From a virus (taxonomy: Duplodnaviria; Heunggongvirae; Uroviricota; Caudoviricetes), in the IMG/VR virus record IMGVR_UViG_2623620505_000004, positions 1-36,147 of that record: a DNA stretch of 36,147 bases; one strand, 5' to 3'. Below the pieces are notes generated by a model. The model made no database searches. It worked only from the letters and a program-made list of their open reading frames with translations, and was not told the origin of the DNA. This document shows positions 9,190-35,816 of this stretch, piece by piece (positions within the stretch are counted from its first letter, which is position 1; the number at the start of each line of letters is the position of its first letter). The position numbers were made by a program, and so were the translations under genes.

Positions 9190-9191
9190 AA

Positions 9192-10504: not shown

Positions 10505-10573
10505 TTTTTTGAACGAATTTTTGCCCTTCTGGCCCGCGTGGCGGCTGGATCCGTCAGGGATCCGTGCGTGCAC

Positions 10574-19157: not shown

Positions 19158-19785
19158 GGCATTCACCCGCGTGGATGAAACCTTTGAGGCTATCCGCGAC
19201 AGCCTGAATCAGCAGGCCATCAATAACATCGCCAGAAAGCTGGCACAGGATTTACGTCGCGCCCAGCAGGCACGTATCCGGTCACAGAAAGCGCCGGACG
19301 GGACTGCATGGACACCACGCAGACGCCGCGTAACCCGGATACAGGAGCGCATTCGCTTTATCTGGAATAACGAAGCACGCACGCTGAAAAACTGGCATCA
19401 CGACACGGGGAAATACGGGCGAACCATTACCGGGTGGGATGAGGATAAAAACAATATCCGCACGTTTTACCGGGATGACATCGACCGTTTTCTGGAAATA
19501 CGCACCCGGCGCATCAACCAGGACAGCACAAAGCGCGTCCCCATGTTCGTGAAACTGCGCACCGCCCGCTACCTGAAAGCCCGTGCAGATGCTTCCGGTG
19601 TGACGGTGGGTTACAGCGGCGTGGCCGCACGTATTGCCCGCGTTCATCAGTTCGGTGAGCGCGATCAGGTTGCGCCGGGCATTTTCACCGATTACCCGGT
19701 ACGTGAGCTGTTGGGTATCAGCCAGGCAGATGAGCGCCTGATTTATAACACGGTGCTGGGCCGGATTGCGGAGGCTGTACGGTGA
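19150..19785 (+). CDS. S: Tail completion / virion morphogenesis protein gpS
   Basis: ATG at 19150 overlapping the R stop (ORF-track start 19141 is GTG); in the P2 S position; longer than P2 S as remembered. Confidence 0.65.
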   Translation: MDKAFTRVDETFEAIRDSLNQQAINNIARKLAQDLRRAQQARIRSQKAPDGTAWTPRRRRVTRIQERIRFIWNNEARTLKNWHHDTGKYGRTITGWDEDKNNIRTFYRDDIDRFLEIRTRRINQDSTKRVPMFVKLRTARYLKARADASGVTVGYSGVAARIARVHQFGERDQVAPGIFTDYPVRELLGISQADERLIYNTVLGRIAEAVR

Positions 19786-20363
19786 GCGCTGAACTCATGC
19801 GACTGCTGAGCAACATCATCCGTACCGGGATCATCTCTGAAGTTGATGAGGAATCCTGGTGCGTGCGCGTTCGCAGCGGCGAACTGGAAACAGGCTGGCT
19901 GCGCTGGAACACCACGCGCGCGGGTGCCTTCAATGTGTGGTTGCCGCCATCACCCGGCGAACAGGTGGTAATTGCCTGCATCGGCGGCAACCCGGAAACC
20001 GCCATGATAATTGGCAGTCTGTGGAGTGATGCCATTCCGGCACCCGGCAAAAGCCTGAAAGAAATCGTGGTCAGCGCGCCGGATGGCGCGGTGTTCCGCT
20101 ACGACGCGGACGCAGGCGCACTGAGCGCCAGCGGCATGAAAACGGCCACCCTGCAGGCATCCGTCAGTGTGACACTGGACACACCTGTCGTGGAATGCAC
20201 AGACCTTCTGAGAACAGCGACGCTTGACGTCACAAAAGGAGGAAAGATGAGCGGCAATATCACGCACAGCGGCGGCAACTTCACCTCAAACGGCATTACC
20301 GTGCATACGCATAAACACGGTGGCGTGAAAGGCGGCAGCGATTCGACAGGAGGCCCGCAGTGA
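19782..20363 (+). CDS. V: Baseplate spike protein gpV (GTG start)
   Basis: GTG at 19782 after GGAGG; IIRTGIISEVD, WLPPSPGEQVVIACIGG, GNITHSGGNFTSNGITVHTHKHGG align with P2 V as remembered. Confidence 0.85.
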   Translation: MSAELMRLLSNIIRTGIISEVDEESWCVRVRSGELETGWLRWNTTRAGAFNVWLPPSPGEQVVIACIGGNPETAMIIGSLWSDAIPAPGKSLKEIVVSAPDGAVFRYDADAGALSASGMKTATLQASVSVTLDTPVVECTDLLRTATLDVTKGGKMSGNITHSGGNFTSNGITVHTHKHGGVKGGSDSTGGPQ

Positions 20364-21610: not shown

Positions 21611-22211
21611 TTCGTTGTTACCACCATCAGCCAGCAATTTCATGCGTTGTGCCGAAGCCGTCGGAACACGCATTACAGACATTCCGGTAGACCTCAACAC
21701 GCTGTGGTCGCCGGACACCTGCCCGGTGCATCTGCTGCCTTATCTCGCCTGGGCGTTTTCCGTTGACCGCTGGGATCGCAACTGGCCGGAAGAGACAAAG
21801 CGACAGGTGATTCGTGATGCATGGCTGATACACCGACACAAAGGGACCATCAGCGCACTGCGAAGAGCCGTGGAGCCTCTCGGCTACCTGATTGAAGTAA
21901 AGGAGTGGTGGCAACTCAACGAGGAGCCGGGAACATTTCGCATTGTTGTCGGAGTACTTGATCAGGGCATCACCGATGAAATGTATCAGGAACTTGAGCG
22001 CCTTATTGCGGATGCAAAACCAGTAAGTCGCCATCTGACGGGGCTGGCGATCAGCCTGAGTGTGAACGGAAAGATTTTCGTTGGTACGGGATGCTATCAC
22101 GGCGATGCCCTGACGGTTTATCCCTACACCCCGGAGTCCATTATTGTCGAAGGGGATTATTTCCCTGCCCCGGCCATTCATTTAATTGATAATCTGAGAG
22201 TAAACGCATGA
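21603..22211 (+). CDS. I: Baseplate protein gpI
   Basis: ATG at 21603 overlapping the J stop (ATGAGTAA); about 202 aa. Confidence 0.75.
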
Positions 22212-23692
22212 CAGTGAAATACTACGCCATTCTGACTAATCAGGGCGCGGCACGACTGGCTAACGCGACGATGCTCGGCAGTAAGCTGAATCTGACGCAA
22301 ATGGCCGTTGGTGATGCAAATGGTGTGTTACCAACACCAGACCCTGCACAAACAAAACTGATTAACCAGAAACGCATTGCACCGCTGAATCTTCTGAGTA
22401 TTGACCCGAACAACCAGAACCAGATTATCGCGGAGCAAATCATCCCTGAGAACGAGGGCGGATTCTGGATCCGTGAGATTGGTCTTTATGATGATGAAGG
22501 CGTACTCATTGCGGTGGCAAACTGCCCGGAAACGTACAAACCGCAGTTGCAGGAAGGCAGTGGACGCACCCAGACTATCCGCATGATTCTGGTTGTCACG
22601 AACACCGAAGCCATCACGCTGAAAATCGACCCGTCTGTGGTTCTGGCAACCCGCAAATATGTGGATGACAAAATCTCAGAGCACGAGCAGTCACGACGTC
22701 ACCCGGACGCCTCGCTGACTGTAAAAGGTTTTACTCAGTTAAGCAGCGCAATTAACAGTGAATCAGAAACACTGGCCGCAACACCGAAAGCGGTTAAGAC
22801 TGCATATGACCTGGCTAACGGGAAATATACCGCCCAGAACGCCACCACAACACAAAAAGGGATTGTTCAGCTCAGTAGCGCCACAAACAGCACGTCTGAA
22901 ACGCTGGCAGCGACACCAAAAGCTGTTAAGGCGGTAATGGATGAAACGAGCAAGAAAGCACCATTAAACAGCCCGGCACTGACCGGAACGCCAACAACAC
23001 CAACAGCACCACAGGGGACTAATAGTACCCAGATCGCAAGCACGGCTTTCGTTATGGCCGCGATTGCCGCACTTGTAGATTCGTCACCTGATGCACTGAA
23101 CACGCTGAACGAACTGGCTGCGGCGCTGGGCAATGACCCGAATTTTGCGACCACCATGACTAACGCGCTTGCGGGTAAGCAACCGAAGGATGCCACCCTG
23201 ACGGCGCTGGCGGAGCTTGCTACATCAGCAGATAAACTCCCATATTTTACAGGGGCAGATCGTGCCGCGTTAACCGCGTTGACAAGTGTTGGACGTGCCA
23301 TTCTTAGTAAAACCAGCACTCAGGGAGTTCTTGATTACCTTGGTTTGGGAGAAGCGGCTAAAAGGAATGTAGGGACAGGTGCGAATCAGATACCTGATAT
23401 GGGTAGTTTTATGCTTTCTGCTACAGTTCCTGGATATCAAAAATTGCCATCCGGTTTAATTATTCAATGGGGGCCAATTGATGTTCCGCTGACGTCTCAG
23501 GACACAGCAACCTATTTTCCGATTGCATTTCCGAACAGATGTCTGCGGGTATTTGCGACTCAGGATTACACTCCCGGCAGTGCAAATGTTGGCTATATAG
23601 CTTGTGCCGGTTATAACCAGGACCCAGTGAAATTTATTTCCAGAGCAGGCGTACCCGGTATCGGTGCTTCATTTTTCGCATTAGGGTGTTAA
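22208..23692 (+). CDS. H: Tail fiber protein gpH (constant N-terminal part plus currently expressed variable C-terminus)
   Basis: N-terminal and central blocks ([48 protein letters not shown] repeats, [55 protein letters not shown]) are near-identical to P2 H as remembered; the C-terminus after LDYLGLGE diverges. Confidence 0.88.
22736..22930 (+). repeat. In-frame tandem repeat in gpH ([19 protein letters not shown] twice)
   Basis: Two 63-nt units at 22736-22798 and 22868-22930 encode near-identical 21-aa segments; the same repeat exists in P2 H as remembered. Confidence 0.6.
23328..23353. promoter_or_regulatory. Left recombination (gix/cix-like) crossover site inside gpH
   Basis: TTCTTGATTACCTTGGTTTGGGAGAA; its reverse complement TTCTCCCAAACCAAGG... 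shares a 14-nt core with the site at 25168-25193 in inverted orientation. Encodes LDYLGLGE at the constant/variable junction of H. Confidence 0.6.
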
Positions 23693-23718
23693 TTTCTTTT
23701 AACTATATGGAGTGAAAA

Positions 23719-24159
23719 ATGAATTACATATATTCCGCGACTACAAACTCTTTCTATCCGCTGGAGATGAAAGAGGATTACACTCAAGCTGACTCATGGC
23801 CAGATGATGCTGTTGAAGTTGATGAGCAAGTGTATATTGAGTTTTCCGGATTACCGCCGAAAGGAAAAATCCGTATCGCTGGAGAAAATGGTTTTCCTGC
23901 ATGGTCTGAAATTCCACCACCAACACATGAGGAACAGATTGCTGCAGCCGAATTGAAAAAGCAGCAATTGATTAATCAGGCCAACGATTATATGAACAGT
24001 AAACAATGGGCTGGTAAAGCGGCTATTGGTCGTCTGAAAGGTGAGGAACTGGCGCAATATAATTTGTGGCTGGATTATCTGGACGCACTGGAGCTGGTCG
24101 ATACTTCCAGTGCGCCAGATATTGAATGGCCTACTCCTCCGGCAGTTCAGGCCAGATGA
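23719..24159 (+). CDS. Tail fiber assembly protein (Tfa/gpG-like), currently expressed copy
   Basis: 146 aa immediately after H; C-terminal DYLDALELVDTSSAPDIEWPTPP matches the C-terminus of the opposite-strand copy (DYIDAVTATDTSTAPDVIWPELPE). Confidence 0.8.
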   Translation: MNYIYSATTNSFYPLEMKEDYTQADSWPDDAVEVDEQVYIEFSGLPPKGKIRIAGENGFPAWSEIPPPTHEEQIAAAELKKQQLINQANDYMNSKQWAGKAAIGRLKGEELAQYNLWLDYLDALELVDTSSAPDIEWPTPPAVQAR

Positions 24160-24727
24160 CATCCGGCGCGGTGCTGGTATCTGTTGCCGTCACCGCGTCA
24201 ATGTAATCCAGCACAGCGTTAAGCCGGGTTGTTTCTGCCTGCGTCAGTTTCCGCCCGGCCCGTAATTTCAGCTGAATCAGACTAATGGAAGCCATTGCTG
24301 CATCAATAAGTGACTGGCGCTGTGCTTCTGCCGCTTCTACTGCGGCACCGTGTTGTGCCTCAGAATCTGTCACCCATTTCTCACCATCCCATTTATCGTA
24401 TGGCGTTAACGGTGAAAGCGTGACATAACCGTCTTTGATGGCACCGATATAATCCACTGTAACAGCTGCACCATTTTCTGTTGAGTAAACAGTCTCATTG
24501 CGATGGTCTTCTTCATGGCTCCATCCCTTACCCGTAAATACTGCCACTTTTCCCGGAATGTTTTCGCCCGGGTCAATACCAGTGGAACAGGCGGGCATAC
24601 TTACACCAGTATTAATATATTCATCAGACCAGCCCGTATATTCATACGTTACTGCATCATAATAAAAACAACGCATATCGCCCGGCACTGTAGCCAGTCC
24701 ATTTTCATCAAAAATTGGGGTCATCAT
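24131..24727 (-). CDS. Alternative tail fiber assembly protein (Tfa'), opposite strand inside invertible segment
   Basis: 198 aa; convergent with and overlapping the plus-strand Tfa 3' end; conserved Tfa C-terminus; start ATG overlaps the stop of the alternative fiber cassette (ATGA). Confidence 0.75.
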   Translation of the reverse strand: MMTPIFDENGLATVPGDMRCFYYDAVTYEYTGWSDEYINTGVSMPACSTGIDPGENIPGKVAVFTGKGWSHEEDHRNETVYSTENGAAVTVDYIGAIKDGYVTLSPLTPYDKWDGEKWVTDSEAQHGAAVEAAEAQRQSLIDAAMASISLIQLKLRAGRKLTQAETTRLNAVLDYIDAVTATDTSTAPDVIWPELPEE

Positions 24728-25167
24728 TTAGCCCTCACCAGAAAGTTAAATGCAATATTTCGCGGTCTGACGGCAACAAAATTCACACCATCACCCACAG
24801 AGTTACTGGTGAAATTAAATCGTGAAAATCCTGGCTGATTTCCGGCGATACCATCATGAAAATTAATTGCGTGGCCCGCACCATCGCCTATATTCCCGGC
24901 AAACTGAGAAAAGTTTGTAGCTGCCTGCCAGCTTAATAATTCGCGACCACCGTCTACACCTCGCCCGTCATCCCAGATACGAATGAAATCACCGCGGGCT
25001 TCAGGTAATACCAGCGAAGGAAACACTTTCGCCAGCACAGGGTAATCAGTGGCAGAAAATTTCGCCCCGTTGAACTTCAAAAACACCATACTGGACCAGC
25101 TGTCGATTACAGTATTTGGCATTGCCGCGGAGGGCCAGAAGAACGGAACGCCAATAGCTGGAGTACC
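24724..25167 (-). CDS. Alternative tail fiber C-terminal cassette (start-less; fuses to gpH after inversion)
   Basis: Minus-strand frame reads through the right crossover site as ...FLNVGLGEG..., continuous with the H junction motif LGLGE; no plausible own start. Confidence 0.6.
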   Translation of the reverse strand, partial: GTPAIGVPFFWPSAAMPNTVIDSWSSMVFLKFNGAKFSATDYPVLAKVFPSLVLPEARGDFIRIWDDGRGVDGGRELLSWQAATNFSQFAGNIGDGAGHAINFHDGIAGNQPGFSRFNFTSNSVGDGVNFVAVRPRNIAFNFLVRAK

Positions 25168-25193
25168 TTCTCCCAAACCAACGTTTAAGAAAA
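25168..25193. promoter_or_regulatory. Right recombination (gix/cix-like) crossover site
   Basis: TTCTCCCAAACCAACGTTTAAGAAAA, an inverted copy of the 23328-23353 core, about 55 bp upstream of the invertase gene. Confidence 0.6.
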
Positions 25194-25248
25194 TGCAGAG
25201 ATTACGGCTAACTGGCATCATCCCCGGTTTTTATTCAGGGGATCCATC

Positions 25249-25848
25249 ATGCTTATTGGCTATGTCCGCGTATCAACAAATGACCAGAATACAGAATTGC
25301 AGCGTAACGCGCTGGAGTGCGCAGGATGTGAACTGATTTTTGAAGATAAAATCAGCGGAACGAAATCAGCCAGACCGGGATTGAAAAAACTGCTCAGAAC
25401 GCTATCAGAAGGAGATACGCTGGTTGTCTGGAAGCTGGACAGACTGGGCAGAAGTATGAAACACCTGATCACGCTTATTGAGGAATTGCGGGAAAAAGGT
25501 GTTAATTTCCGTAGTCTGACGGACAGCATTGACACATCAACACCCATGGGGCGTTTCTTTTTTCACGTCATGGGGGCTTTAGCCGAAATGGAACGTGAAT
25601 TAATTGTAGAGCGTACACTGGCCGGGCTGGCAGCAGCACGCGCACAAGGACGCATTGGCGGACGTCGCCCGAAGTTGACAAAAGAACAACACGAGCAAAT
25701 AGCGAGGCTGATTAAAAACGGTCATGACAGGAAACAACTGGCGATCATTTACGACATCGGCATATCGACGATTTATCGTTATCACCCTGTAGGCGATATA
25801 CAGGCTGAAGAAACAACCAGGCAGACTCAGGAAAATAAAAACCGCTAA
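25249..25848 (+). CDS. Serine DNA invertase (Gin/Cin/Hin/Pin family)
   Basis: MLIGYVRVSTNDQNTELQRNAL..., VVWKLDRLGRSMKHL, C-terminal HTH; 199 aa, the classic small serine recombinase/invertase architecture. Confidence 0.9.
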   Translation: MLIGYVRVSTNDQNTELQRNALECAGCELIFEDKISGTKSARPGLKKLLRTLSEGDTLVVWKLDRLGRSMKHLITLIEELREKGVNFRSLTDSIDTSTPMGRFFFHVMGALAEMERELIVERTLAGLAAARAQGRIGGRRPKLTKEQHEQIARLIKNGHDRKQLAIIYDIGISTIYRYHPVGDIQAEETTRQTQENKNR

Positions 25849-25867
25849 TCTGACCATTAGCGGTTTT
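25840..25867. terminator. Bidirectional intrinsic terminator between convergent invertase and gpU
   Basis: AACCGCTAA-TCTGACCA-TTAGCGGTT, a 9-bp stem, flanked by A-run upstream and TTTG downstream. Confidence 0.55.
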
Positions 25868-25874
25868 GCGTTAA

Positions 25875-26369
25875 TCAAAACAGCCCTTTAACGGAGCTGG
25901 CCGCGCTGTTAAGGGATGATGTGACCTTATCTTTGAAGCCGGACAGCATATCACTGAACGATGAGGATTGCAGGCGCTCCCGCAAATCCTCATCACAGCG
26001 TTCAAGAGTCAGTGAAAATTCTATCTTTTTCGCCTTACCGTAGCGATCAAACTCGGAACGGGTCGTATTCGTTTCAGTCAGTACATACATGCCGTAAATC
26101 TGCCCGACACCATCAATCAGAGGCCAGGGGCGTCCTGTATATGCCTGCGTGGTCAGCAACGAAAGCGACACTTCGCCACCTGTAATTTCAGGATAAAGCA
26201 CGCCGGAAAGCACGATGCGATCATCACCTGCGCCGATATATTGCCAGCTTGCTGAACGATTAACGCGTTCATTTTTCACATGCCGCCAGCTTTTGTTTTG
26301 CTGTAACTGCTGATGCGGCAATGTGCGCAGCTCAAAAACAAACATGCCGTAGATCATCATCATGGCCAT
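25875..26369 (-). CDS. U: Tail protein gpU
   Basis: MAMMMIYGMFVFELRTLPHQQLQ...WRH..N.RVNR...LSGVLYPE.TGG aligns with the P2 U N-terminus as remembered. Confidence 0.85.
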   Translation of the reverse strand: MAMMMIYGMFVFELRTLPHQQLQQNKSWRHVKNERVNRSASWQYIGAGDDRIVLSGVLYPEITGGEVSLSLLTTQAYTGRPWPLIDGVGQIYGMYVLTETNTTRSEFDRYGKAKKIEFSLTLERCDEDLRERLQSSSFSDMLSGFKDKVTSSLNSAASSVKGLF

Positions 26370-26375
26370 GACTCC

Positions 26376-29192
26376 TCAATCTTTATCGTAAAAACTGCCA
26401 CGTCCGGCACGGTCGCGTCGTTCCAATTCTGCCCTGACCATTTCACCGACCAGTTTCGCCAGTTCGCGGGGATTCTGCGTAACAACGTTATGCAGATGAA
26501 CATGAATTTCACCGCCAAATCCGGAGACAACAGGCTCCCGGTTACGGGAAGTTGCAGGAACTGATGCCACTGGCGATCGTATGGCCTCCGCCACCGGGCG
26601 GGAGCTGGCCGCAACAACAGGGACCAGCGCCGGAGGCAGAGGAGTCGGGACCACGGGTGTGATGTTGATTGCGGAAGCAGGCTTACTGACCTGCGCAATC
26701 TTCCGCTCCTGCCACTCCCCACGAACAGCAAGTGCGCGGGGCAGGTTCTTAAAGACAATATCGCCGGGGCCAATGCGTTTTTTCGTCTCATCAACCAGCT
26801 TACCTGTGTTATCAGCAATTTTGCTGAGTCTGCGTAGCGTACCGGTATTGCTGTCTGTGAGCGGTTTGTTGTCTTTGGGTTTATCACCTCCGGTGCCATT
26901 GCCATTTTCCACAGGCTTCGGCGGATTGATTTTCGCCAGGTCCCCCTGAAGCAAGGCAACCTTGTCCTGAAGAATGGCCGCACGCTGTGCGTCTTCGATT
27001 TTCTTGCGCGCCCTTTCCGCTTCATCCGGAAGGACGCCAAGTTTTTCAAGTATCCACGCCAGCGTATCCAGTAGCATTTTTGCAGGCGTCAGAACAAGTT
27101 GTAACGCACCGCCAAGAACGTTACCGAATATCTCGCCAGCACTGGTACATTTATCCAGCGTTTCCTTGCTGGACTCCATCGGTGACAGCAGCGATTTAAA
27201 CCAGTTAAACACCTGGCTGATCCCGCTTCCGATTGCGTCAAAAACAGGACCAAACCGTTCAAAGGTTTCGCGCAACGGGGCCAGCCTTTCCATAATCCCG
27301 CTGAACACCCCGGCAAAAAATGCCCTGATGGGATCCCAGTATTTCCAGATAAGAACGGCAGCTCCGGCAAGTGCAGCCACGATAAGACCAACCGGACTGA
27401 ACAGCGCCCCGATAGCGCCTCCCAGTAAAGAAACGGAACCCGTCACCATTCCCCATAGTGCTGGCAGGACCCTGACAGCATTCATTGATCCGGTCAGGAG
27501 AGAAAAACCAAGACGCAGTTTTGCCAGCGGACCAGCAAGCATACCAATAGCCAGCGACAACGAGCCAACCGTTGCAGTCATTGCCAGCAACGCACCGCCT
27601 GCTATCAGTAGCTGGCGCGTCAGTGCCGGATGGGCCTGCGCCAGCGCCGTCACCCTTGATACCACCCGCGTGAGCCACTGCGTGACAGAACGCAGCGGAC
27701 CGTCAATCAGATCTGCAATGCGGATGCGCAACCCTTCCCATGCACTGCCGAGTGATTTCAGATCGCCGTCAAGGTTGTTGGCCATAACCTTTGCTGTGCG
27801 TTCAGCCTCACCGCGCGCGCCTTCAAGTTCTTTTCTCAGTTTGGGTAAGGAACCGTCACCCGCTGCATCAACGAGCGCCATAAACGATGTGAAAGCCTCT
27901 TCTCCGGCAATGTCCTTAAAGAACGATACCCGGTCAACTTCCCCGTATTTGCGGGTGGCTTTATAAAGGTCGGCCAGCACATCCTCCATCGGGCGCATTT
28001 TGCCCCCGGCATCCGAGACGGACACGCCCAGCTCTTTCAGAGCTTCTGCCGCCGCCTTTGGCGGTGATGCCAGACGAGCCAGGCTGGCACGCATTGCCGT
28101 CCCGGCATCACTCCCTCTGATGCCCATATTCGCCAGCACGCCAGCCATCGCTGCGGCCTGCTCCAGCGATATTCCCAGCTTACCCGCCACCGGACCTGCA
28201 TATTTCATGGTTTCGCCCAGTGCGCGAAGGTCAGTGTTGGTACGGGTAAACGCTGCGGTGAGTGTGTCACCGACCCGGTCCATCTGGTCAGCAGAAAGGC
28301 CGAACTGCGTCAGGATATTTGAGCCAATATCTGCCGTCTCGCCGAGATCCATACCGCCAGCCGTTGCCATGCTCAGCACTCCGGGAAGCGCAGCCTGAAT
28401 GGCCTGCGGTGTGAAGCCAGCCATTGCAAGAAATGCCTGCCCACTGGCGGCATCGCCTGCGGTGAACTGCGTTTCAGAGCCAAGTTTTAACGCCTGCTCA
28501 CGCAGCGCCTTAAACTGCGGGCTGTTCTGGTCGATTCGCGTCAGCGCCTGAACGCGGGACATCTCTTTGCCGAACCCGATCGCGGGCTGCAAAAAACGCC
28601 CGGCAGCATAGCCGCCCGCCGCTGCCGCACCAATTGCCAGCGCACCACCTGTTTTCAGTTTTCCCGCGGTTTCCTGCGCGCGCGAATACCGCTCACGCGC
28701 CCGCGTTACACGCGCAAGCGCCTGCCGTTCGCGTTCAAGCTGGTTGTTGTACTGTTCGGTGCGTCTGATGGCCTGCTGGATGGTGTTATCGCTGCCTGTC
28801 AGGGAAATGCCGTGGCGTTTCAGCTCTCCGCCAAGTTCCCGCATTTTCTGAATTTCCCGTGTGCGCGATTCATTCAGGCGTTCAAGCCGGGTGCTTAACT
28901 GCTGCATCAGCTTTTGTTGTTTTTCGCTGAGCACTGTACCCGTGCGTTGTAACTGATTAAGGGCGTTAAGCTGGCGTCGTGCTTTCACGATGCCCGCATC
29001 CGCTTTACTGACAGCGTCACGGGCGCGCTCAAACGAACGCGCCTGACGCTCGAGATTTTTGATCGCCCCCTGCGTTCGCTGGATGGAGTCACCAAACTGC
29101 CCCATCAGGCGGCGGGCGTTTTCGGCAGGCCGGGTCAGCCTGTCAACGGCGCTGAAAGCGACCCGGATATCAAGAGTCTTCATTGTCTGCAT
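26376..29192 (-). CDS. T: Tail tape measure protein gpT
   Basis: About 940 aa, alanine/glycine-rich with hydrophobic central segments. Start ambiguous: GTG at 29219 (ORF track), ATG at 29192 and 29183. Confidence 0.85.
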   Translation of the reverse strand: MQTMKTLDIRVAFSAVDRLTRPAENARRLMGQFGDSIQRTQGAIKNLERQARSFERARDAVSKADAGIVKARRQLNALNQLQRTGTVLSEKQQKLMQQLSTRLERLNESRTREIQKMRELGGELKRHGISLTGSDNTIQQAIRRTEQYNNQLERERQALARVTRARERYSRAQETAGKLKTGGALAIGAAAAGGYAAGRFLQPAIGFGKEMSRVQALTRIDQNSPQFKALREQALKLGSETQFTAGDAASGQAFLAMAGFTPQAIQAALPGVLSMATAGGMDLGETADIGSNILTQFGLSADQMDRVGDTLTAAFTRTNTDLRALGETMKYAGPVAGKLGISLEQAAAMAGVLANMGIRGSDAGTAMRASLARLASPPKAAAEALKELGVSVSDAGGKMRPMEDVLADLYKATRKYGEVDRVSFFKDIAGEEAFTSFMALVDAAGDGSLPKLRKELEGARGEAERTAKVMANNLDGDLKSLGSAWEGLRIRIADLIDGPLRSVTQWLTRVVSRVTALAQAHPALTRQLLIAGGALLAMTATVGSLSLAIGMLAGPLAKLRLGFSLLTGSMNAVRVLPALWGMVTGSVSLLGGAIGALFSPVGLIVAALAGAAVLIWKYWDPIRAFFAGVFSGIMERLAPLRETFERFGPVFDAIGSGISQVFNWFKSLLSPMESSKETLDKCTSAGEIFGNVLGGALQLVLTPAKMLLDTLAWILEKLGVLPDEAERARKKIEDAQRAAILQDKVALLQGDLAKINPPKPVENGNGTGGDKPKDNKPLTDSNTGTLRRLSKIADNTGKLVDETKKRIGPGDIVFKNLPRALAVRGEWQERKIAQVSKPASAINITPVVPTPLPPALVPVVAASSRPVAEAIRSPVASVPATSRNREPVVSGFGGEIHVHLHNVVTQNPRELAKLVGEMVRAELERRDRAGRGSFYDKD

Positions 29193-29438
29193 TCCCGCTG
29201 CGAAGTGCCGCCCGCTCACGCCAGCTAACCACTTCGCCGGGCGTCATCATGAAGATTTCGGCGGGCGACCAGTTAAAAATGGCGGCGATATCTGCCACCA
29301 GATCTTCGATGTGCTCAAAGCACACCAGGGTGATTACGCTGCCGTCTCCTGCACGCTCTTCGCGCCAGAGTCTGGCTCGCTCATAAAATTTACAGCTACA
29401 GCGCACAACTGAATAAAATCGCGTGACGACATTTTTTT
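29170..29438 (-). CDS. gpE' extension reached by programmed -1 frameshift from gpE (E+E' product)
   Basis: A7 run on the coding strand (plus 29432-29438 is T7) within ...ATT AAA AAA ATG... of gpE; the -1 frame is open from 29436 down to the stop at 29172-29170. Frame arithmetic (E codon starts at positions congruent to 2 mod 3, E' to 0 mod 3) fits a -1 slip. Confidence 0.5.
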
Positions 29439-29708
29439 AATCATCACTTCATCCAGTCGTGGCGAGGTCACGCGAGGCAACAGCGTGAACATGGTATCCG
29501 CTTTCAGATTCAGCACATCAGACAGCGACAGACCACGCAGGGATCCAGCCTGTTCAATAGCCCCGGTGATCTCCACATACGTGATTTTTTCGCCACCACG
29601 CTCAATTGGTCGGGTCAGTTTTACGCCACGTTCGACAGCCATATCCTCACCTGCCGTCACATCATCCGCCACGGTGTTATTCCGGGTTTCAGTATCGATG
29701 TCTTTCAT
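29334..29708 (-). CDS. E: Tail assembly chaperone gpE
   Basis: ATG at 29708 after AAGGAG; 124 aa; between the tail tube and tape measure genes. Confidence 0.8.
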   Translation of the reverse strand: MKDIDTETRNNTVADDVTAGEDMAVERGVKLTRPIERGGEKITYVEITGAIEQAGSLRGLSLSDVLNLKADTMFTLLPRVTSPRLDEVMIKKMSSRDFIQLCAVAVNFMSEPDSGAKSVQETAA

Positions 29709-29763
29709 CAGTTGTCTCCTTTTCAGTCAGAGGCGACGCACTGCGCCGCCTGCATATTACTTA

Positions 29764-30276
29764 TCAGCCAAGCCCAAGCGCGGAACGGATACGGTCAGGC
29801 ACAATGTCCTTGCCGTCCTTCCGGTAGATGTGGTTCAACAGGTCGATTTCCCACAGCGGGCGATCGTTAACGCTCAGCTTGTAGTAGGTGTTTTTGACAG
29901 CGTAAGTGTGTGATGTGGCTTCGCCCTGTTTGGCTTCCCCCATATCAATTTCCGTCACACGTCCGCGCATCTCGATTTCATACAGATCGCTTTCTGCATC
30001 GGTGTAGTATTCACCCGCAAAACGCAGCAGCGTGCCGTCAATCGTGCCGCCATATTTAAGGAACAGCGCACGAACAGCTCCCCCCATAACAAAACTCGCA
30101 TCAAGCGCGGAGTCGTCCAGACCGAGATCAATACTTACCGCCCCCATCATGCCACCACCACGATAGCTGTCGGTTTTGCGCGTCAGTTTGGGCGGCGTGA
30201 CGGATGTCACTTTACCCACTTCGTTTTCACCATCCACAAACAACGTAAAAAAGCGAAGATGTTTTGGTACAGCCAT
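29764..30276 (-). CDS. FII: Tail tube protein gpFII
   Basis: MAVPKHLRFFTLFVDG...VTPPKLTRKTDSYRGGGMMG...LRFAGEY aligns with P2 FII as remembered; start overlaps the FI stop (TGATG). Confidence 0.9.
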   Translation of the reverse strand: MAVPKHLRFFTLFVDGENEVGKVTSVTPPKLTRKTDSYRGGGMMGAVSIDLGLDDSALDASFVMGGAVRALFLKYGGTIDGTLLRFAGEYYTDAESDLYEIEMRGRVTEIDMGEAKQGEATSHTYAVKNTYYKLSVNDRPLWEIDLLNHIYRKDGKDIVPDRIRSALGLG

Positions 30277-31460
30277 CAGGCACCTCCCAGCACCGCAAAT
30301 GCGGGACCAAAGAATTCATCAGTAAACGTCTGGTAAAGCTCCATGTCTTCCAGTGGCGGAACGGGCGTATATTTGTAGCGAATACGCACACGTCCCTGAC
30401 GTAAATTCGTGGTGCCGTTATCCACCACGTCATACCAGCACTCCGCACCAATCAGTTTCCCGGCAGTAACCAGCGAATCCAGTTTTGCCCTGATGGCACT
30501 GATAACATCCTTCACGTTCGCAGGCGTCAGTGGACTGTCGATGGTTTCAAACTGCGCTTCCGCAATTGAATCAGCCAGCACCTGTGCGGTTCGGGTATAC
30601 ACCTCAAAGATGTAGGCGTTCGTTTCCGGTGTGCGGTTGCCCCAGAAGCGGAACCCGTTGCGGCGAATGATGGTGGTGATTTCCTTGTTGTTGAGGCTGT
30701 TGGCGTCACTGTCCTCGGCCTGTAACGACCAGAAAACATGTTGTGACATGCCCAGGACATTTTTAACCGGAACATTGGACAGCGATTTGTGCCAGCCCTG
30801 CTCATGGTCAATATACGCACGAAGGCCGCACGCATAAGCAGGCGCGGGGAACGTTTCGTTTTTACCACTTTTCGGGTTGTAGGCGATGAAGTCAGGCCAT
30901 AAGAGCATCACCTCACGTTCGTTGAATTTCTGGCGGTAGGTAATCGCCTCAGCCATCGTGTTACAGCCGTGACATGAGGCATACACAAACGCGCGCAGTT
31001 TACCCGCAATCACGCACAGGGATTTTGTTACCGCCTCCGTGTCCAGCTCCGGCGCGGCCAGAATACGCGGACGGTATCCGATGCTTTCATCCTGCTCTGC
31101 AACAAGCAGCGCATACATCCCCGTATAGCTGCCGTCATCCTCAGAACCACCGATAACCAGTTGATCCTGCGTCTTTCCGTCTTCTTCTTTGTGTTCAGCC
31201 ACGCGAACGACGATCACCTTTGTGCTCACCTGGTCTGCGATGGCCTTAAGCGCACGATAAAGCGTCCCCGTTGTCCCGCATTTTCCCAGCACGTCATTGA
31301 CGCGGGTCAGCAGTGTGGGCTTGTTCAGCGGGAACAGCTTCGCGTCCGCATCATCCGCCGTTGCCACGATACCGATAACGCTGGAATCAACATCGTTAAT
31401 CGCTGTTACCAGGTCGGTACTTTCCGTAACACGGGCACCATGAAAACGAGTTTCACTCAT
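30276..31460 (-). CDS. FI: Contractile tail sheath protein gpFI
   Basis: 394 aa, MSETRFHGARVTE...; size, position and order FI-FII-E-T-U as in P2. Confidence 0.9.
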   Translation of the reverse strand: MSETRFHGARVTESTDLVTAINDVDSSVIGIVATADDADAKLFPLNKPTLLTRVNDVLGKCGTTGTLYRALKAIADQVSTKVIVVRVAEHKEEDGKTQDQLVIGGSEDDGSYTGMYALLVAEQDESIGYRPRILAAPELDTEAVTKSLCVIAGKLRAFVYASCHGCNTMAEAITYRQKFNEREVMLLWPDFIAYNPKSGKNETFPAPAYACGLRAYIDHEQGWHKSLSNVPVKNVLGMSQHVFWSLQAEDSDANSLNNKEITTIIRRNGFRFWGNRTPETNAYIFEVYTRTAQVLADSIAEAQFETIDSPLTPANVKDVISAIRAKLDSLVTAGKLIGAECWYDVVDNGTTNLRQGRVRIRYKYTPVPPLEDMELYQTFTDEFFGPAFAVLGGA

Positions 31461-31617
31461 AGCTTCAGCCCCTTGTATCCGTTAAATGATTCGGCAACAA
31501 TCATCACCCACCACGCGCGTAATCTCACCCCTGCGCCGTTCTCCCGACCCGGCGACAACAAAAAGCAGTAACCCCCTCCGCACGCACATGCGACCATGCC
31601 GCACAGGGAGAGAACAG
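31461..31617. promoter_or_regulatory. Divergent promoter region between FI (minus) and D (plus)
   Basis: Intergenic region that must carry promoters for the minus-strand FI-U block and for plus-strand D; no confident Ogr dyad recognised. Confidence 0.35.
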
Positions 31618-32727
31618 ATGACCGATACCACCATGCAATTGCTCAGTCAGGGCACAGACCCCGTGAAAATGCCGGATTTTGATATTCTCGCAGAGGGTAA
31701 AACGCTGTCCGGCGTGGCAGAACGCCTGATGAGCCTGTCGCTGACCGACAACCGGGGATTTGAAGCGGACCAGCTCACCATCAAGCTGGATGATGCGGAT
31801 GGTCAGTTGCAGCTACCGCCACGGGGCGCGCGCCTGACGGTTCTCATTGGCTGGAAAGGAGAACCGCTGACAGAAAAAGGCACTTACATTGTTGATGAAA
31901 TCGCTCACGAAGGACCGCCGGACAGGCTGACTGTTTCAGCCAGAAGCGCAGATTTTCGGGATGAATTTAACGTTAAACGTGAGGTGTCCTGGCATGATGT
32001 GACCGTTGAACGCGTGGTATCCGCCATCGCTCATCGGTACGGCCTGAAACCGCAAATCAGCGAAATGCTGATGGATATCGAAATCGACCACGCCGACCAG
32101 ACTGAAGAAAGCGACATGTCCTTCCTTACGCGCATGGCGGAAATGCTGGGCGCAATCACCACGGTAAAAAGCGGTAATCTGTTATTCATCATGCCCGGTG
32201 GTGGCGTGAACGCACAGGGTCAGCCGTTGCCATCGTTTGCCATCACACGCAACAGCGGCGATCGCCATCAGTTCCGCATTGCTGACCGCGAGGCGTATAC
32301 GGGTGTACGCGCCTACTGGCTTGATCTTAATTACGGGAAAAAGAAAAAAGTCAGCGTGAAACGCCGCAAACCGCCAAAACCCAAAAAGGAGAAAAGTAGC
32401 AGCCGTGAAGGTGATTATATGGAAGGCGCGGAAGGCAATGTGTTTGTGTTACGCAAGACTTATCAAAACGAGCAGGCAGCAAGACGCGCAGCGGCGGCAA
32501 AGTGGCAGCAGCTACAACGCGGAGCCGCAGCGTTCTCCATCACACTGGCACGTGGACGCGCAGAACTCTACCCCGAAATGCATGGCACGGTAACAGGATT
32601 TAAAAGCGAGATTGATAATCAGGACTGGATTATTGCGAAAGCCGAGCACACCATTGATAACAGCGGCTTTACCACGCAGCTTGAGCTTGAAGCAAAAATC
32701 CCGGAGTGGATAGCAGAAACAGAGTAA
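31618..32727 (+). CDS. D: Late tail protein gpD
   Basis: ATG at 31618 after GGAG; blocks SWHDVTVERV, ESDMSFLTRMA, GNLLF, WLDLNYGKKKKVSVKRR, AKWQQLQRGAAAFSITLARG align with P2 D as remembered. The ORF-track start at 31486 lies upstream. Confidence 0.85.
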   Translation: MTDTTMQLLSQGTDPVKMPDFDILAEGKTLSGVAERLMSLSLTDNRGFEADQLTIKLDDADGQLQLPPRGARLTVLIGWKGEPLTEKGTYIVDEIAHEGPPDRLTVSARSADFRDEFNVKREVSWHDVTVERVVSAIAHRYGLKPQISEMLMDIEIDHADQTEESDMSFLTRMAEMLGAITTVKSGNLLFIMPGGGVNAQGQPLPSFAITRNSGDRHQFRIADREAYTGVRAYWLDLNYGKKKKVSVKRRKPPKPKKEKSSSREGDYMEGAEGNVFVLRKTYQNEQAARRAAAAKWQQLQRGAAAFSITLARGRAELYPEMHGTVTGFKSEIDNQDWIIAKAEHTIDNSGFTTQLELEAKIPEWIAETE

Positions 32728-32815
32728 ACAACTTAAATGTATAAGCTAAGATATTAGCTGGAACGCTTGCTGCACAGAGGCAGCCCCAATTTGACAATCA
32801 CTTCTATGACAGAAG

Positions 32816-32838
32816 CGCTACCTTATTATAAGGTAGCG
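32816..32838. repeat. Perfect 10-bp inverted repeat (CGCTACCTTA-tta-TAAGGTAGCG) in the D / ATPase intergenic region
   Basis: Read directly; no adjacent U-tract, so it may be a protein-binding palindrome rather than a terminator. Confidence 0.4.
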
Positions 32839-32978
32839 TAGATTGAGCAATCTATATCGTGCTAAAAACACATGTTGAATATTTAGATATCGATGTGATA
32901 TTAACGTTATATCAAGAGAGTTAATGTTCTACCGAACCTTATTATCAGAGTTTATTATAGATAAACAATTACTATCAA

Positions 32979-33016
32979 TAAGAGCCACGCACGCAATATT
33001 TTGAGGCTGTGGCTCT
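32979..33016 (-). terminator. Putative terminator hairpin downstream of the 712-aa ATPase gene
   Basis: AAGAGCCAC...GTGGCTCTT 9-bp stem with about 20-nt loop, roughly 25 nt after the minus-strand stop at 33040; moderately T-rich 3' side on the minus strand. Confidence 0.35.
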
Positions 33017-33039: not shown

Positions 33040-35178
33040 TCAGGCAATCTCGCGACCAACATCGTCATTTGCCGCAAAAGCTGATAGTAACAAATTATCA
33101 CACTCAGTTATGACATATTCTGGAATGAGATCGAATCTAGCCGGATCCAGCTGGCAGATAAACTCATTTTCGATATGATAGGTTTCATTAATAAATTTCT
33201 GAATTACAGAGTTTGTATGCTCAATACCCATTAACCTGAAAACTTGCAATTTTTCGTAGCTACTTTTGCAACTGAAATAAAGCGTGGTGAGAAAGTTTTC
33301 GCAGGTGATTTTTGCTAGCTCTACCTTATAGTTGAAATCTGGAATATGATTAATTATTTCGTGACAACCTAAATTTTCACTAACTTCTGACATTAACGAA
33401 TATTCCCCGTCGATCTTCGCCAAGCGCCTATCCTCCAGAAATTCCCGCTTATGAAAAAGATTTGAAAGCACTTGATAGGCATCCCCCAGATCATCAAGGA
33501 TTTCGTAATGACGGCGAAGATATATCAACTTAATAATATCGTCACTCACAGACTGTAGAGCCGATGTGCAGATTTGAGCAAAAGTTTTGATATCCGAATT
33601 TGAAATTGGTTGCTCTGTAATAACACCATTACTGTAGCGGAGATAAGCTGCTGAAACTTGATTATCAAATTGCTGCCTAACAGCGCGAATAGTATCGATG
33701 ATTGGCTCAACATCATGCGTCAACATCAGCACTGTTTTACTCTTAAGACAATCAGATGGCTCTCTACGAAAAAGCATTTCAAGAATCGCAAACTTCTTAT
33801 TTTTATCGAACGAGGAAATGGGATCATCCAAAATAATCAGACTTGGTTTTCTAGAAAGACATTCATACATGAAGAGCACGAGGGCAAACGCATTTCTTTC
33901 ACCGTAACTTAGATGTTGGCTACCACCAGTGACGACATCTGTATGATCTACATGATAGAGTTGTAGTCGTGGCTGTGCATCGTCTGTTATCCGCACACGG
34001 TAACGATAACCAGCATAGGATAGAAAATCATTGATATTTTTTTGGTGCTTTATAACGAGCTGGCGTACTTTATTCCGCTGCTGATTCAGTTTACCCTGAA
34101 GTGGTCCAGCGCTTGCAATTAGATCAGTCAGAGAAGTATTGAGTGCATCAACAATACGTGTGGTTTCTTCTGATTGAAGTTCAGTAAAGAAGTCCAGATT
34201 CAACTTGTAAGAGGCGAGTTTAGCAGCTACATCGTCTCCTTCTGTGAAGCTAAATCCGGAAAGCGTTTTAAGCACGGTAAGTTTATCTATTAGATCATCT
34301 GTTTGAGATTTAAGGGTGATAAGATATGTTTCATGCTGCTGCTCAAGACCATTAGGAAGGGTTGTGATTTCTTTAAGACGATCACGGGCAGAGTCAGTAA
34401 GGTAAATTCCTAAACGCTGAATGACATCAACAAGCTCCATCAAATTTTTGATGACAGCTTGGTCATATTCTACTCCAACCTGTTGAATTCGTTGTTGTTG
34501 TTGTTCGGTAGATTCACTACTGCAATAAGGACAGTACTCACCCGCAAGTTCACCAAACTCTGTTAGCCCTTTTGTCTGCCAAGCAATCCACTGCACACTT
34601 TTATTACTAGTTATCATGTTTCTGTACGGTTCAAGTGCGGCAGGGATATGAAGAAGTTTATTACCTCCAGCAAGCGCTTTCATACCCTTTGTACTTTTAC
34701 TAAGAGCAGATGCTGCAGTGACTTTAAATGCACTGGATAAAACAGTGAGATCGCTCAATAGGGTTTCCAGTTGTGTATGCTCGGTAAACACCTGACGGAT
34801 CGTCGAAATAATTAATTCTATTTCACTCTCTGTTCTGATATACGCGTCAGTTTTGATTAATATGTCGAAACTGTTGGCTACAAGCTCATCCTGACGGAAT
34901 GTGAACTGGCTAACATACTCCTCATTGAAACACATTATATTATCTAGTTGTTCCATTCCGGTCACAGAGGGCGCAACATTATCGGGGTTATTTGCCCTGA
35001 ATTTAAAAGGAAGTAATTCTGCCAAACAAGCTTCCTGCCCAGGCAAACTGAACTGCATCGCCCGAGCAATAGTGCTTTTCCCTGTACCATTCGGCGCAAA
35101 ACGAATATTCAACTTTTTTTCGGCTAGAGAAACAGTAGCAAAGTCAATGCTATTACAGTAACTAATTTCAATTTCCAT
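33040..35178 (-). CDS. Rad50/SMC-like ABC ATPase with coiled-coil CxxC hook and C-terminal HEPN-like domain (RloC/AAA_13-like); candidate single-gene defense protein
   Basis: ATG at 35178 after GAAGG. Walker A APNGTGKST near the N-terminus; long helical insert containing CPYC; signature LSYGERN, Walker B LIILDDP and H-loop LMLTHD about 450 residues later; C-terminal about 200 aa with RLMGIEH (Rx5H). AT-rich island. Confidence 0.75.
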   Translation of the reverse strand: MEIEISYCNSIDFATVSLAEKKLNIRFAPNGTGKSTIARAMQFSLPGQEACLAELLPFKFRANNPDNVAPSVTGMEQLDNIMCFNEEYVSQFTFRQDELVANSFDILIKTDAYIRTESEIELIISTIRQVFTEHTQLETLLSDLTVLSSAFKVTAASALSKSTKGMKALAGGNKLLHIPAALEPYRNMITSNKSVQWIAWQTKGLTEFGELAGEYCPYCSSESTEQQQQRIQQVGVEYDQAVIKNLMELVDVIQRLGIYLTDSARDRLKEITTLPNGLEQQHETYLITLKSQTDDLIDKLTVLKTLSGFSFTEGDDVAAKLASYKLNLDFFTELQSEETTRIVDALNTSLTDLIASAGPLQGKLNQQRNKVRQLVIKHQKNINDFLSYAGYRYRVRITDDAQPRLQLYHVDHTDVVTGGSQHLSYGERNAFALVLFMYECLSRKPSLIILDDPISSFDKNKKFAILEMLFRREPSDCLKSKTVLMLTHDVEPIIDTIRAVRQQFDNQVSAAYLRYSNGVITEQPISNSDIKTFAQICTSALQSVSDDIIKLIYLRRHYEILDDLGDAYQVLSNLFHKREFLEDRRLAKIDGEYSLMSEVSENLGCHEIINHIPDFNYKVELAKITCENFLTTLYFSCKSSYEKLQVFRLMGIEHTNSVIQKFINETYHIENEFICQLDPARFDLIPEYVITECDNLLLSAFAANDDVGREIA

Positions 35179-35555: not shown

Positions 35556-35816
35556 ATGTTCCGTTGTCCGCTTTGTGGCGCATCTGCCCGTATCCGCACA
35601 AGTCGCCCTGAAAATGATTCGAATACCGTGCGGCAAAAATATTACCAGTGTAACAACCTGGAATGCGGCGTATGCTTCTCAACACTGGAAGCCTTCCATA
35701 AATTCACATCGAAACACGCCTCCAGCGCTCACTCTTCGGAGAGTATCCCTTGGCATGATCTGCCAGCTTCACACAGAGGAAACAATCAGATGAGTTTGCC
35801 CTTACCTCAGAATTAA
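35556..35816 (+). CDS. ogr: Ogr/Delta-family zinc-finger late gene activator
   Basis: MFRCPLCGASARIRTSR...YYQCNNLECGVCFSTLE aligns with P2 Ogr (MFHCPLCQHAAHARTSR...YHQCQNVNCSATF) including both Cys pairs; AAGGGAGG RBS. Confidence 0.85.
   Translation: MFRCPLCGASARIRTSRPENDSNTVRQKYYQCNNLECGVCFSTLEAFHKFTSKHASSAHSSESIPWHDLPASHRGNNQMSLPLPQN

Follow-up and report, generated by a model that had tools for sequence, protein, structure and literature searches.

The window analysed was the whole of IMG/VR virus record IMGVR_UViG_2623620505_000004 (36,147 nt, Caudoviricetes). Gene identities in the tail region were established with Pfam, and the encoded proteins were compared with those of phage P2 by tblastn. 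Homologues of FI, FII, E/E', T, U and D were all present, as expected of the contractile-tail module of a P2-like phage (Peduoviridae), with module identities to P2 of 33-48%. FI, FII, E/E', T and U all lie on the minus strand (25875-31460) and are flanked by an invertase gene and by D, both on the plus strand (Table 1). Pfam identities and strands thereby confirmed the order FI-FII-E-E'-T-U described for this locus in a first-pass annotation made from the DNA letters. In the P2 record FI-FII-E-E'-T-U-D-ogr are carried on a single strand behind the promoter pF, which confirms the earlier description of the 5.6-kb block as inverted relative to P2. gpD keeps the P2 orientation and lies outside the inverted block. 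The canonical F operon, with FI-FII-E-T-U-D co-oriented behind pF, is thus not the organisation of the window.

Table 1. Coordinates of tail genes, predicted control elements and crossover sites in the window
Feature	Position	Strand	Evidence or remark
Left-hand crossover site of the invertible tail-fibre segment, ACCTTGGTTTGGGAGAAG	23337-23354		Inverted repeat (I8), 94% complementary; outside the tail block
Right-hand crossover site of the invertible tail-fibre segment, CTTCTCCCAAACCAACGT	25167-25184		Inverted repeat; 18-mer match
Gene for the Din-family serine DNA invertase of the fibre segment	25249-25848	+	Resolvase E 6e-52; HTH_7 E 1e-12
Bidirectional intrinsic-terminator hairpin between the convergent invertase gene and U	25838-25867		12-bp stem, T-runs on both strands
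gpU tail protein, final gene of the inverted operon	25875-26369	-	Phage_P2_GpU E 5.5e-39; 46% identical to P2 gpU
gpT tape measure protein	26376-29183	-	PhageMin_Tail E 3.7e-58; P88 homologue 2808 nt
E' extension, -1 frame	29170-29406	-	Phage_P2_GpE E 2e-12
gpE tail assembly chaperone	29334-29708	-	Phage_TAC_7 E 4.7e-4, under the curated cut-off; 35% identity to P2 gpE (tblastn)
gpFII tail tube protein	29764-30276	-	Phage_tube E 2e-45
gpFI tail sheath protein, first gene of the inverted operon	30276-31460	-	Three sheath domains; 45% identical to P2 FI
Divergent control region between FI and D, 157 bp	31461-31617		Spacer of divergent genes
FI operon promoter (pF), predicted -10 element GATGAT	31500-31505	-	46 bp from dyad centre; predicted start near 31493
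Putative Ogr-type activator dyad, GTTCT-N12-ACAAC (contains TCT-N12-ACA)	31538-31559		Centre 31548.5
D promoter, predicted -10 element GACCAT	31592-31597	+	46 bp from dyad centre; predicted start near 31604
gpD baseplate hub protein	31618-32727	+	Phage_GPD E 4e-17; about 48-49% identical to P2 gpD
ogr homologue, late-gene activator	35556-35816	+	Ogr_Delta zinc finger (PF04606) E 4.5e-14; 42% identical to P2 Ogr
Exact dyad copy in the divergent P/O spacer	13788-13809		Offset of -10-like hexamers 55 towards P and 56 towards O

Gene starts were assigned as follows. The T reading frame extends upstream to a GTG at 29219, and the ATG at 29183 was taken as the likely true start, as in the P88 annotation. 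The E' reading frame, in the -1 frame, overlaps the end of E, and its stop overlaps the start of T. A heptamer AAATTTT near 29384, within the E/E' overlap, is a candidate slippery site, and E' would be made by -1 frameshifting, as annotated in P2. For D the ATG at 31618 was used, which has a GGGAGAG Shine-Dalgarno sequence and agrees with the P88 annotation; it is supported by the alignment of P2 gpD, which starts at residue 63 of the longer D reading frame. The first ATG of that longer frame is at 31486 and would leave a gap of only 25 bp to FI. The divergence of FI and D from a 157-bp spacer, as first described, holds with the start at 31618, which this length presumes.

The phage encodes an Ogr/Delta zinc-finger activator, the ogr product carrying a CX2C...CX4C motif in addition to its PF04606 match; a 2.8-kb cargo insertion lies between D and ogr. 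No exact direct repeat that could represent att sites was shared by the two window ends over the lengths searched (12 to 40 nt), and the window contains no tRNA or tmRNA genes.

At the other end of the block the stop codons of the invertase gene (25848) and U (25875) are 26 nt apart, and the two genes converge tail-to-tail, as had been stated. The hairpin between them has predicted folding energies of -14.7 and -15.6 kcal/mol on the two strands (z -3.8 and -4.4). The neighbouring gene is annotated as a DNA invertase in both P88 and phiSM. The two breakpoints had been placed exactly at operon boundaries. This was correct for the FI side, which matches a boundary in P2; the U/D breakpoint falls inside the P2 F operon.

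The FI-D spacer was searched for late promoters. The consensus TGT-N12-ACA and the four late operons of P2 were taken from the literature (PMC3931495). A strict search of the window with this consensus gave 7 matches, which is no excess over chance, and none was in a late intergenic region; the motif was therefore built from the P/O and FI/D spacers of the phage itself. The resulting dyad occurs exactly at 13788, 27098 and 31538 only (3 copies in the window against an estimated 0.07 or so expected), and the FI-D spacer holds one copy. It is one base off the consensus (TCT for TGT) and was scored as an Ogr-type dyad; a perfect GTTGT-N12-ACAAC is present in several relatives, including 3LV2017 and KSP20. 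The ATG of FI lies 88.5 nt from the dyad centre and that of D 69.5 nt. In most of the clade the centre is 80.5-88.5 nt away from the FI ATG, compared with 81.5 nt in P2 pF.

In a P2-type late promoter the centre of the activator site is expected some 55 bp ahead of the transcription start. Hexamers resembling -10 elements are found on both sides of the dyad at one and the same spacing from its centre (Table 1), which would be consistent with such starts, the corresponding spacing in P2 pF being 47 bp. The pattern nAnn[AC]T was present at the exact FI-side offset (55) in 95% of 38 distinct relatives (background 12%) and at the exact D-side offset (55) in 89% (background 6%); the 38 promoter regions are phylogenetically related, and these counts overstate their independence. 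D starts extrapolated from tblastn were scattered and unreliable, and annotated starts and dyad-aligned sequences were used instead. A conserved CGCGCGCGCAT-like element precedes the D-side hexamer. Scanning 31461-31617 with the sigma-70 consensus found no promoter-like site; activator-dependent promoters would be expected to give such a result, which was therefore not counted against them. Two other dyad copies, one within T (27098) and one within an open reading frame of the lysis region (18216, one mismatch), were tried as promoters and rejected, both lacking the two-sided hexamer geometry. Judged from these comparisons, the FI-D spacer is probably a bidirectional Ogr-dependent late promoter that would give D its own transcript. 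The proposal that the inversion places D on its own promoter thus has comparative support in the conserved dyad and hexamer geometry.

Orientation was then compared among relatives. Eight Xuanwuvirus phages each aligned as one collinear megablast piece at 92-97% identity, with matching annotated strands where these were compared (P88, phiSM), and the FI/D junction is 97% identical to P88-type genomes. The window prophage was classed as P88-like (Xuanwuvirus, Peduoviridae) by its identity over 25250-32740 and at the FI/D junction. The 7.5-kb stretch running from the invertase gene and U through FI to D was collinear in 1348 of 5426 complete E. coli genomes, E2348/69 among them, and D and FI diverged in all 80 IMG/VR loci examined. 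The inverted block was also present in four further ICTV genera (Novemvirus, Reginaelenavirus, Reipivirus and Senquatrovirus) and in Serratia KSP20, and the inverted order was found in 38 species-level prophages from about 20 Enterobacterales genera. In a survey of one-genome-per-species contigs, every locus with an FI at least 54% identical to that of the window was inverted, and every locus with an FI of 51% identity or less was canonical. No orientation polymorphism was seen among more than 1400 loci, and near-identical genomes were not found in both orientations; all close relatives examined were alike.

The inverted order is a fixed, inherited trait of a large clade of P2-like prophages that comprises the P88-like phages and at least four sister genera. 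The gene order itself was already known from deposited annotated genomes, where it has been visible since KSP20 and P88. An explicit description of the FI-U inversion was not found in the literature searched (Xuanwuvirus, P88, SEN4/5, and P2-like gene order and late promoters). The first-pass annotation had considered a lineage-specific arrangement, a rearrangement by a recombinase and an assembly error, and had proposed alignment to P2-like relatives as a check. It had regarded the same orientation in close relatives, with conserved promoters, as the mark of an ordinary lineage feature. The alignments agree with a lineage-specific arrangement, the orientation being common to P88-like phages and their sister genera and the promoter elements conserved.

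An artefact in the assembly of this particular sequence is excluded. Identical junctions are present in all 1348 of the complete E. coli genomes above, in 80 independent IMG/VR contigs and in phage genomes from induced or infective particles, namely P88 (PMC5285337) and phiSM (PMC6456863). Both junctions moreover bear functional-looking signals, the bidirectional terminator at one and the conserved divergent promoter at the other. It is also very improbable that the Din-family invertase, or another site-specific recombinase, flipped or still flips the 5.6-kb block through secondary gix-like sites. The invertase gene does adjoin the U end of the block, and enzymes of the Din type flip DNA between inverted crossover sites, a real pair of which lies nearby around the fibre segment. 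With as many as 3 mismatches allowed, however, the window has no copies of the 18-nt crossover core beyond that pair (two matches, 0.03 expected). No gix- or cix-like site was found at 25849-25875 or 31461-31617, no AAACCNNGGTTT-type core at the tail-block ends, and no inverted repeat joining the two intervals, so that the search of both breakpoints suggested at the outset returned nothing. The orientation is also kept without an invertase gene in 27 of the 45 close relatives whose sequence runs from U to H and in four other genera, whereas Fels-2 and many canonical prophages have an invertase beside FI in the canonical order. A recombinase switch is further opposed by the uniform orientation of the more than 1400 loci. 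Insertion in reverse of the FI-U block as a foreign cassette, acquired from some other contractile-tail element, is unlikely as well. P2-like genomes are mosaic, and a J tree did not separate inverted from canonical loci, both of which would suit a cassette. Identity to P2, however, is alike inside the block (FI 45%, FII 42%, U 46%) and outside it (D 48%, Q 47%, P 44%, V 46%), and this even divergence across the late genes argues against a recently imported cassette. Neighbour-joining trees of FI and U (inside the block) and of D (outside) each gave one identical, clean split into 44 inverted and 44 canonical loci; the trees cover the 80 loci most similar in FI. One locus (L091, from CP052639, a Klebsiella record labelled as a 'plasmid'), in which FI is broken and pieces are rearranged, was left out of the trees and of the promoter counts. 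The pF dyad, too, retains its P2 distance to the FI ATG. Apart from the J tree, these comparisons point to a single ancient inversion of the FI-U block.

A further alternative accepts a lineage-wide inversion and concerns the spacer. FI and D may be served by two independent promoters, with read-through or a sigma-70 promoter supplying the D transcript; the symmetry about the dyad would then be coincidental. This is possible but rather doubtful. In its favour, the D-side hexamers (GACCAT, AACCAT) are poor as -10 elements, the conserved GC-rich CGCGCGCGCAT element beside them could be a separate control element, and certain distant loci of the clade (in Xenorhabdus and Photorhabdus) have a best-matching dyad that is weaker or displaced. 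Coincidence is harder to reconcile with a lone dyad in a 157-bp spacer that yielded nothing in the sigma-70 scan, and with a hexamer offset that is equal on the two sides in 89-95% of the 38 regions. The phage's own P/O spacer has equal geometry, and the site there is annotated in P2 as one shared site.

The explanation preferred for the locus is one ancestral inversion of FI-U together with pF, fixed since, with D on its own late promoter (probability roughly 0.85). An ancestor of a large Enterobacterales clade of P2-like phages would have flipped FI-FII-E/E'-T-U once, pF included. The flipped order would have been fixed ever since, and would be neither a switch, nor a product of the invertase, nor a misassembly. 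The event would have separated D (and ogr) from the F operon. A single Ogr-bound site would now drive transcription leftward through FI-U and rightward through D, and the FI-D spacer would in this way copy the divergent pP/pO arrangement of P2, which is seen also in the P/O spacer of the phage itself. Leftward transcription would stop at the bidirectional terminator that the FI-U operon has in common with the convergent invertase gene.

A broader proposal is given somewhat better than even chances. One ancient inversion of FI-U and pF would mark at least five Peduoviridae genera and would have been tolerated because the Ogr-binding site is dyad-symmetric. With D lying beyond the pF dyad, a -10 element at the mirror position would have been enough to create a second late promoter. 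Four late units (P-Q, O through G, FI-U and D) would then be expressed from two shared activator sites, compared with three sites and four promoters in P2. In the window S and V overlap and a pV spacer is absent, which fits a two-site picture. The literature searched contained no explicit account of such a scheme.

As a discovery the arrangement carries little weight, since the order is the norm in a very common type of prophage. In the annotation of P88-like prophages the P2 F-operon structure should not be assumed, and the inverted order should not be taken for a rearrangement or a misassembly. The inversion provides a clean shared derived character that sets Xuanwuvirus, Novemvirus, Reginaelenavirus, Reipivirus and Senquatrovirus apart from genera of the P2, 186 and Fels-2 types. 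If the shared-dyad promoter is real, it would illustrate in a simple way how a symmetric activator site permits an operon to be split by inversion with its regulation retained.

The Xuanwuvirus phages matched were P88, P884B11, phiSM (Citrobacter), 520873, 500465-2, 503458, PhiR44_2 and Chuche. Like the window, they are collinear from the invertase gene to D on equal strands and have the 157-bp FI-D spacer, the dyad and the hexamers; PhiR44_2 and Chuche match only from about window position 25800 onward and appear to be without the invertase gene. They differ from the window in the fibre segment and in cargo, with a PDC-S06-like gene between D and ogr in the window and a hok-like gene at that place in P88. 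The phages of the other genera, Novemvirus phiT5282H, Reginaelenavirus 3LV2017, Reipivirus ST16-OXA48phi5.4 and Senquatrovirus SEN4/SEN5, together with KSP20, have the inverted FI-U block, a divergent D (and ogr), and the dyad and hexamer geometry of the window. Their FI proteins are only 55-76% identical to that of the window, and they have no invertase beside U, other cargo occupying the U-fibre junction.

Fels-2 (Salmonella, Felsduovirus) is also P2-like; between its fibre genes and tail operon it carries an invertible fibre segment and a Din-family invertase. Unlike the window, it has the canonical co-oriented FI-FII-E-T-U-D-ogr, with the invertase directly upstream of FI, and the presence of an invertase beside the tail block is therefore not tied to the inversion. 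The P2 F operon has the same genes in the same internal order, the same -1 overlap of E and E', an E' stop overlapping the T start, and an activator dyad about 81-88 nt upstream of the FI ATG. All of its genes, D included, are co-oriented, whereas in the window FI-U is inverted and D diverges from FI. The nearest parallel to the FI-D spacer is P2 pP/pO, where one activator site is annotated and the two transcription starts, separated by 111 bp, lie 55.5 bp to either side of its centre. In the window the FI/D (157 bp) and P/O (155 bp) spacers each contain one dyad flanked on both sides, at 46-47 bp, by -10-like hexamers. The shared-site architecture confined to P and O in P2 would, in the window, putatively extend to FI and D.

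Each gene assignment in the window, a P2-like prophage, was backed by Pfam (see table). In the P2 record, a single same-strand operon behind pF comprises FI, FII, E, E', T, U, D and ogr. Compared with this operon, the strands in the window show that the FI-U tail block is inverted, as the first-pass annotation had stated. D most likely starts at 31618, a position with a Shine-Dalgarno sequence that is also favoured by the P88 annotation and by alignment with P2 gpD; with this start the previously described 157-bp FI-D spacer holds. T likely starts at the ATG at 29183 rather than the GTG at 29219. The ORF at 29170-29406, in the -1 frame, encodes a GpE domain and is E'; its overlap with E contains the heptamer AAATTTT. 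For O, the ATG at 13881 is more likely than the listed ATG at 13847 (a GAGGGG Shine-Dalgarno sequence, the P88 annotation and the P2 gpO alignment agree), giving a P/O spacer of 155 bp, near that of FI/D. The invertase and U stop codons are separated by 26 nt, and a 12-bp hairpin common to both gene ends (25838-25867) has T-runs on each strand. The description of the breakpoints as lying exactly at operon boundaries was half right: it fails for the U/D cut, which falls inside the P2 F operon.

Coordinates of genes and gene groups in the window
Feature	Position	Strand	Remarks
int	596-1720	-	
A	4366-7188	+	replication gene
ParM/StbA actin-like segregation protein	7265-8224	+	StbA_N E 2e-82, ParM_N E 1e-68
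Small OLD-like TOPRIM/AbiLii-like protein	8671-9195	-	
AbiLi-like ATPase	9192-10391	-	PADLOC E 1e-27
Q and P	10928-13725	-	
O to H and G	up to 24159	+	head/lysis/baseplate/fibre genes
H	22208-23692	+	fibre gene
G	23719-24159	+	Caudo_TAP chaperone gene
Alternative fibre end and chaperone	24131-25221	-	
Serine invertase gene	25249-25848	+	Pfam
U, T, E/E', FII, FI	25875-31460	-	Pfam
D	31618-32727	+	Pfam
712-aa ATPase	33040-35178	-	GC ~0.40; full-length match to PADLOC candidate defence family PDC-S06 (E 2e-277); Pfam AAA_13 domain
Ogr/Delta zinc-finger protein	35556-35816		

Alignment to related P2-like genomes showed the orientation to be common to relatives. Megablast of window positions 23500-33000 recovered the invertase gene through D as a single collinear piece (92-97% identity) in P88, P884B11, Citrobacter phage phiSM, 520873, 500465-2, 503458, PhiR44_2 and Chuche; the annotated strands of P88 and phiSM are those of the window. 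The arrangement is functional, given that P88 came from induction and phiSM was obtained as an active phage (PMC5285337, PMC6456863). The collinear inv-U...FI-D stretch was present in 1348 of 5426 RefSeq complete E. coli genomes, including EPEC E2348/69, when at least 80% of its 7.5 kb was required as one collinear place. D and FI were divergent in all 80 IMG/VR loci examined (80 of 436 relatives found), and the opposite orientation was not seen among the relatives examined. Assembly error, one of three origins considered in the first-pass annotation, is thereby ruled out, as is a recent private rearrangement.

The first-pass annotation had also considered a recombinase-mediated rearrangement, and the invertase gene is adjacent to the block. 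The sole crossover-type inverted repeat in the window (23337-23354 and 25167-25184) flanks the 1.8-kb fibre segment. No similar crossover site was found at the block ends, even at 3 mismatches, nor any inverted repeat or gix-like site. The block is still inverted in 27 of 45 close relatives that span U to H without an invertase gene, and the gene is also missing from Novemvirus, Reginaelenavirus, Reipivirus and Senquatrovirus phages with an inverted block. Conversely, Fels-2 and many canonical prophages carry an invertase directly upstream of FI and keep the canonical order. The neighbouring invertase was rejected as the cause on these grounds. Of the three proposals, a lineage-specific arrangement holds, in agreement with the orientation common to Xuanwuvirus-type phages, their sister genera and the E. 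coli genomes.

The FI/D junction was used as a blastn query and matched, at 65-73% identity, Enterobacter phage phiT5282H (Novemvirus), Klebsiella phages 3LV2017 (Reginaelenavirus) and ST16-OXA48phi5.4 (Reipivirus), Salmonella phages SEN4 and SEN5 (Senquatrovirus) and Serratia phage KSP20. In their annotations, D with ogr lies on the strand opposite to U-T-E-FII-FI; Gegevirus and Fels-2, unlike the window, retain the P2 order. One genome per species was then scanned with an FI alignment and loci were classed by tblastn. All loci with FI at least 54% identical to that of the window were inverted, and all with FI at most 51% identical were canonical. Inverted loci occurred in Salmonella, Citrobacter, Enterobacter, Kosakonia, Symbiopectobacterium, Mixta, Trabulsiella, Erwinia, Klebsiella, Raoultella, Brenneria, Pantoea, Pectobacterium, Yokenella, Providencia, Photorhabdus, Xenorhabdus, Morganella, Yersinia, Dryocola and Serratia. 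The window is an ordinary member of the P88-like phages, a genus in which, as in at least four sister genera, the block is normally inverted. This order has stood in deposited annotated genomes for years; the papers searched on P88, phiSM, SEN4/5 and a KSP20-like prophage make no comment on it.

By neighbour joining, the trees for two block genes (FI and U) and for D, outside the block, each separated 44 inverted from 44 canonical loci by one split. The J tree did not separate them, a pattern consistent with baseplate and fibre modules having been exchanged later. Identity to P2 is even across the late genes (FI 45%, FII 42%, U 46%, D 48%, Q 47%, P 44%, V 46%), which speaks against a foreign cassette having been imported and favours an in-place inversion in a shared ancestor. 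The co-oriented order was taken to be ancestral, since Mu and the R-type pyocins, whose tail modules are related, have it too.

Several other features were recorded. The segment at 23337-25184 is a standard host-range switch: an invertible tail-fibre segment bounded by cix/gix-like sites, carrying alternative H C-termini and two opposed Caudo_TAP chaperone genes (23719-24159, plus; 24131-24727, minus), with the invertase gene just outside. In one related locus (L078, IMGVR_UViG_2654587728_000014, 3499-10681 of a 69.8-kb contig) a break at residue 455 divides the tape-measure gene into oppositely oriented halves, and between them lie two invertase genes with 86% and 98% identity to that of the window; the locus looks like the product of recombination between two P88-like prophages, or like part of a chimeric contig. 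Another (L091, CP052639.1, Klebsiella pneumoniae 'plasmid unnamed', 32.4 kb), in the phage collection though labelled a plasmid, carries a P2-like genome of the inverted clade in which D and ogr lie between two pseudogene fragments of FI; it represents a rearranged element or else a faulty assembly. D and ogr adjoin in most relatives; the 712-aa ATPase gene between them looks like defence cargo in a variable slot, where P88 has a hok-like gene. The two-gene cassette between the replication genes and Q (8671-10391, minus, GC ~0.34) is probably an AbiL-type abortive-infection or defence system. The ParM/StbA gene just after A is also annotated in P88, followed there by a 'partition protein'; an integrating P2-like phage would not be expected to carry a partition module of plasmid type.

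P2 late promoters are Ogr-dependent and have a common TGT-N12-ACA site (PMC3931495). The FI-D spacer contains the dyad GTTCT-N12-ACAAC (31538-31559), which includes TCT-N12-ACA and is a putative Ogr-type activator site; in relatives it is often the perfect palindrome GTTGT-N12-ACAAC. Its 10 specified bases occur in three exact copies in the whole window (~0.07 expected by chance, our estimate), of which the intergenic ones lie only in the P/O (13788) and FI/D spacers. In most of the inverted clade, 80.5-88.5 nt separate the dyad centre from the FI ATG, close to the 81.5 nt of P2 pF; the dyad is thus most simply read as the activator site of pF, moved together with the block. The third exact copy is inside T (27098-27119, minus), on the T sense strand. 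A one-mismatch copy with a spacer closely like that of the FI/D dyad (GTTCTCCCGGCCCAGCGACCAC) is inside a lysis-region ORF (18216-18237, minus). The two-sided -10 geometry described below was not found at either, and these copies may be chance matches or internal late promoters.

Thirty-eight distinct spacers were aligned with the dyad as anchor. Exactly at offset 55 (46 bp centre to centre), a -10-like hexamer, nAnn[AC]T, begins on the FI side in 95% of them (GATGAT, GATTAT, GAATAT and similar) and on the D side in 89% (GACCAT, AACCAT, AATCAT, AACTAT and similar), against 6-12% elsewhere in the spacers. The D side runs CGCGCGCGCAT-like element, hexamer, Shine-Dalgarno sequence and D ATG, the last ~69-71 nt from the dyad centre. 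The GC-rich element (31579-31591; consensus CGCGCGCGCAT, window form CGCACGCACAT) is immediately upstream of the predicted D -10 and conserved across genera, and the predicted P -10 has a similar CGCGCGCGG ahead of it at 13757-13765. The GC-rich element could provide promoter context, as spacer or discriminator-like sequence, or could be a second binding site.

The conserved dyad and D-side hexamer support the earlier suggestion that D has its own promoter. From this geometry we infer that a single Ogr-bound dyad would activate both the leftward FI-U operon (predicted start ~31493) and the rightward D transcript (~31604), with the FI-U operon predicted to end at the bidirectional terminator common to the invertase gene. 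S (19141-19785) overlaps V (19782-20363), so the window has no P2-type pV spacer or orf30. In this lineage, O through G may form a single long transcript, with two bidirectional control regions serving all late genes. A shared-dyad FI/D promoter was not described in the literature searched. It would be a small variation on the P2 pP/pO design: the P2 record annotates one activator-binding site for both promoters, with transcription starts 111 bp apart, and the P/O spacer of the window, with O placed as in P88, has a two-sided geometry like that of FI/D.
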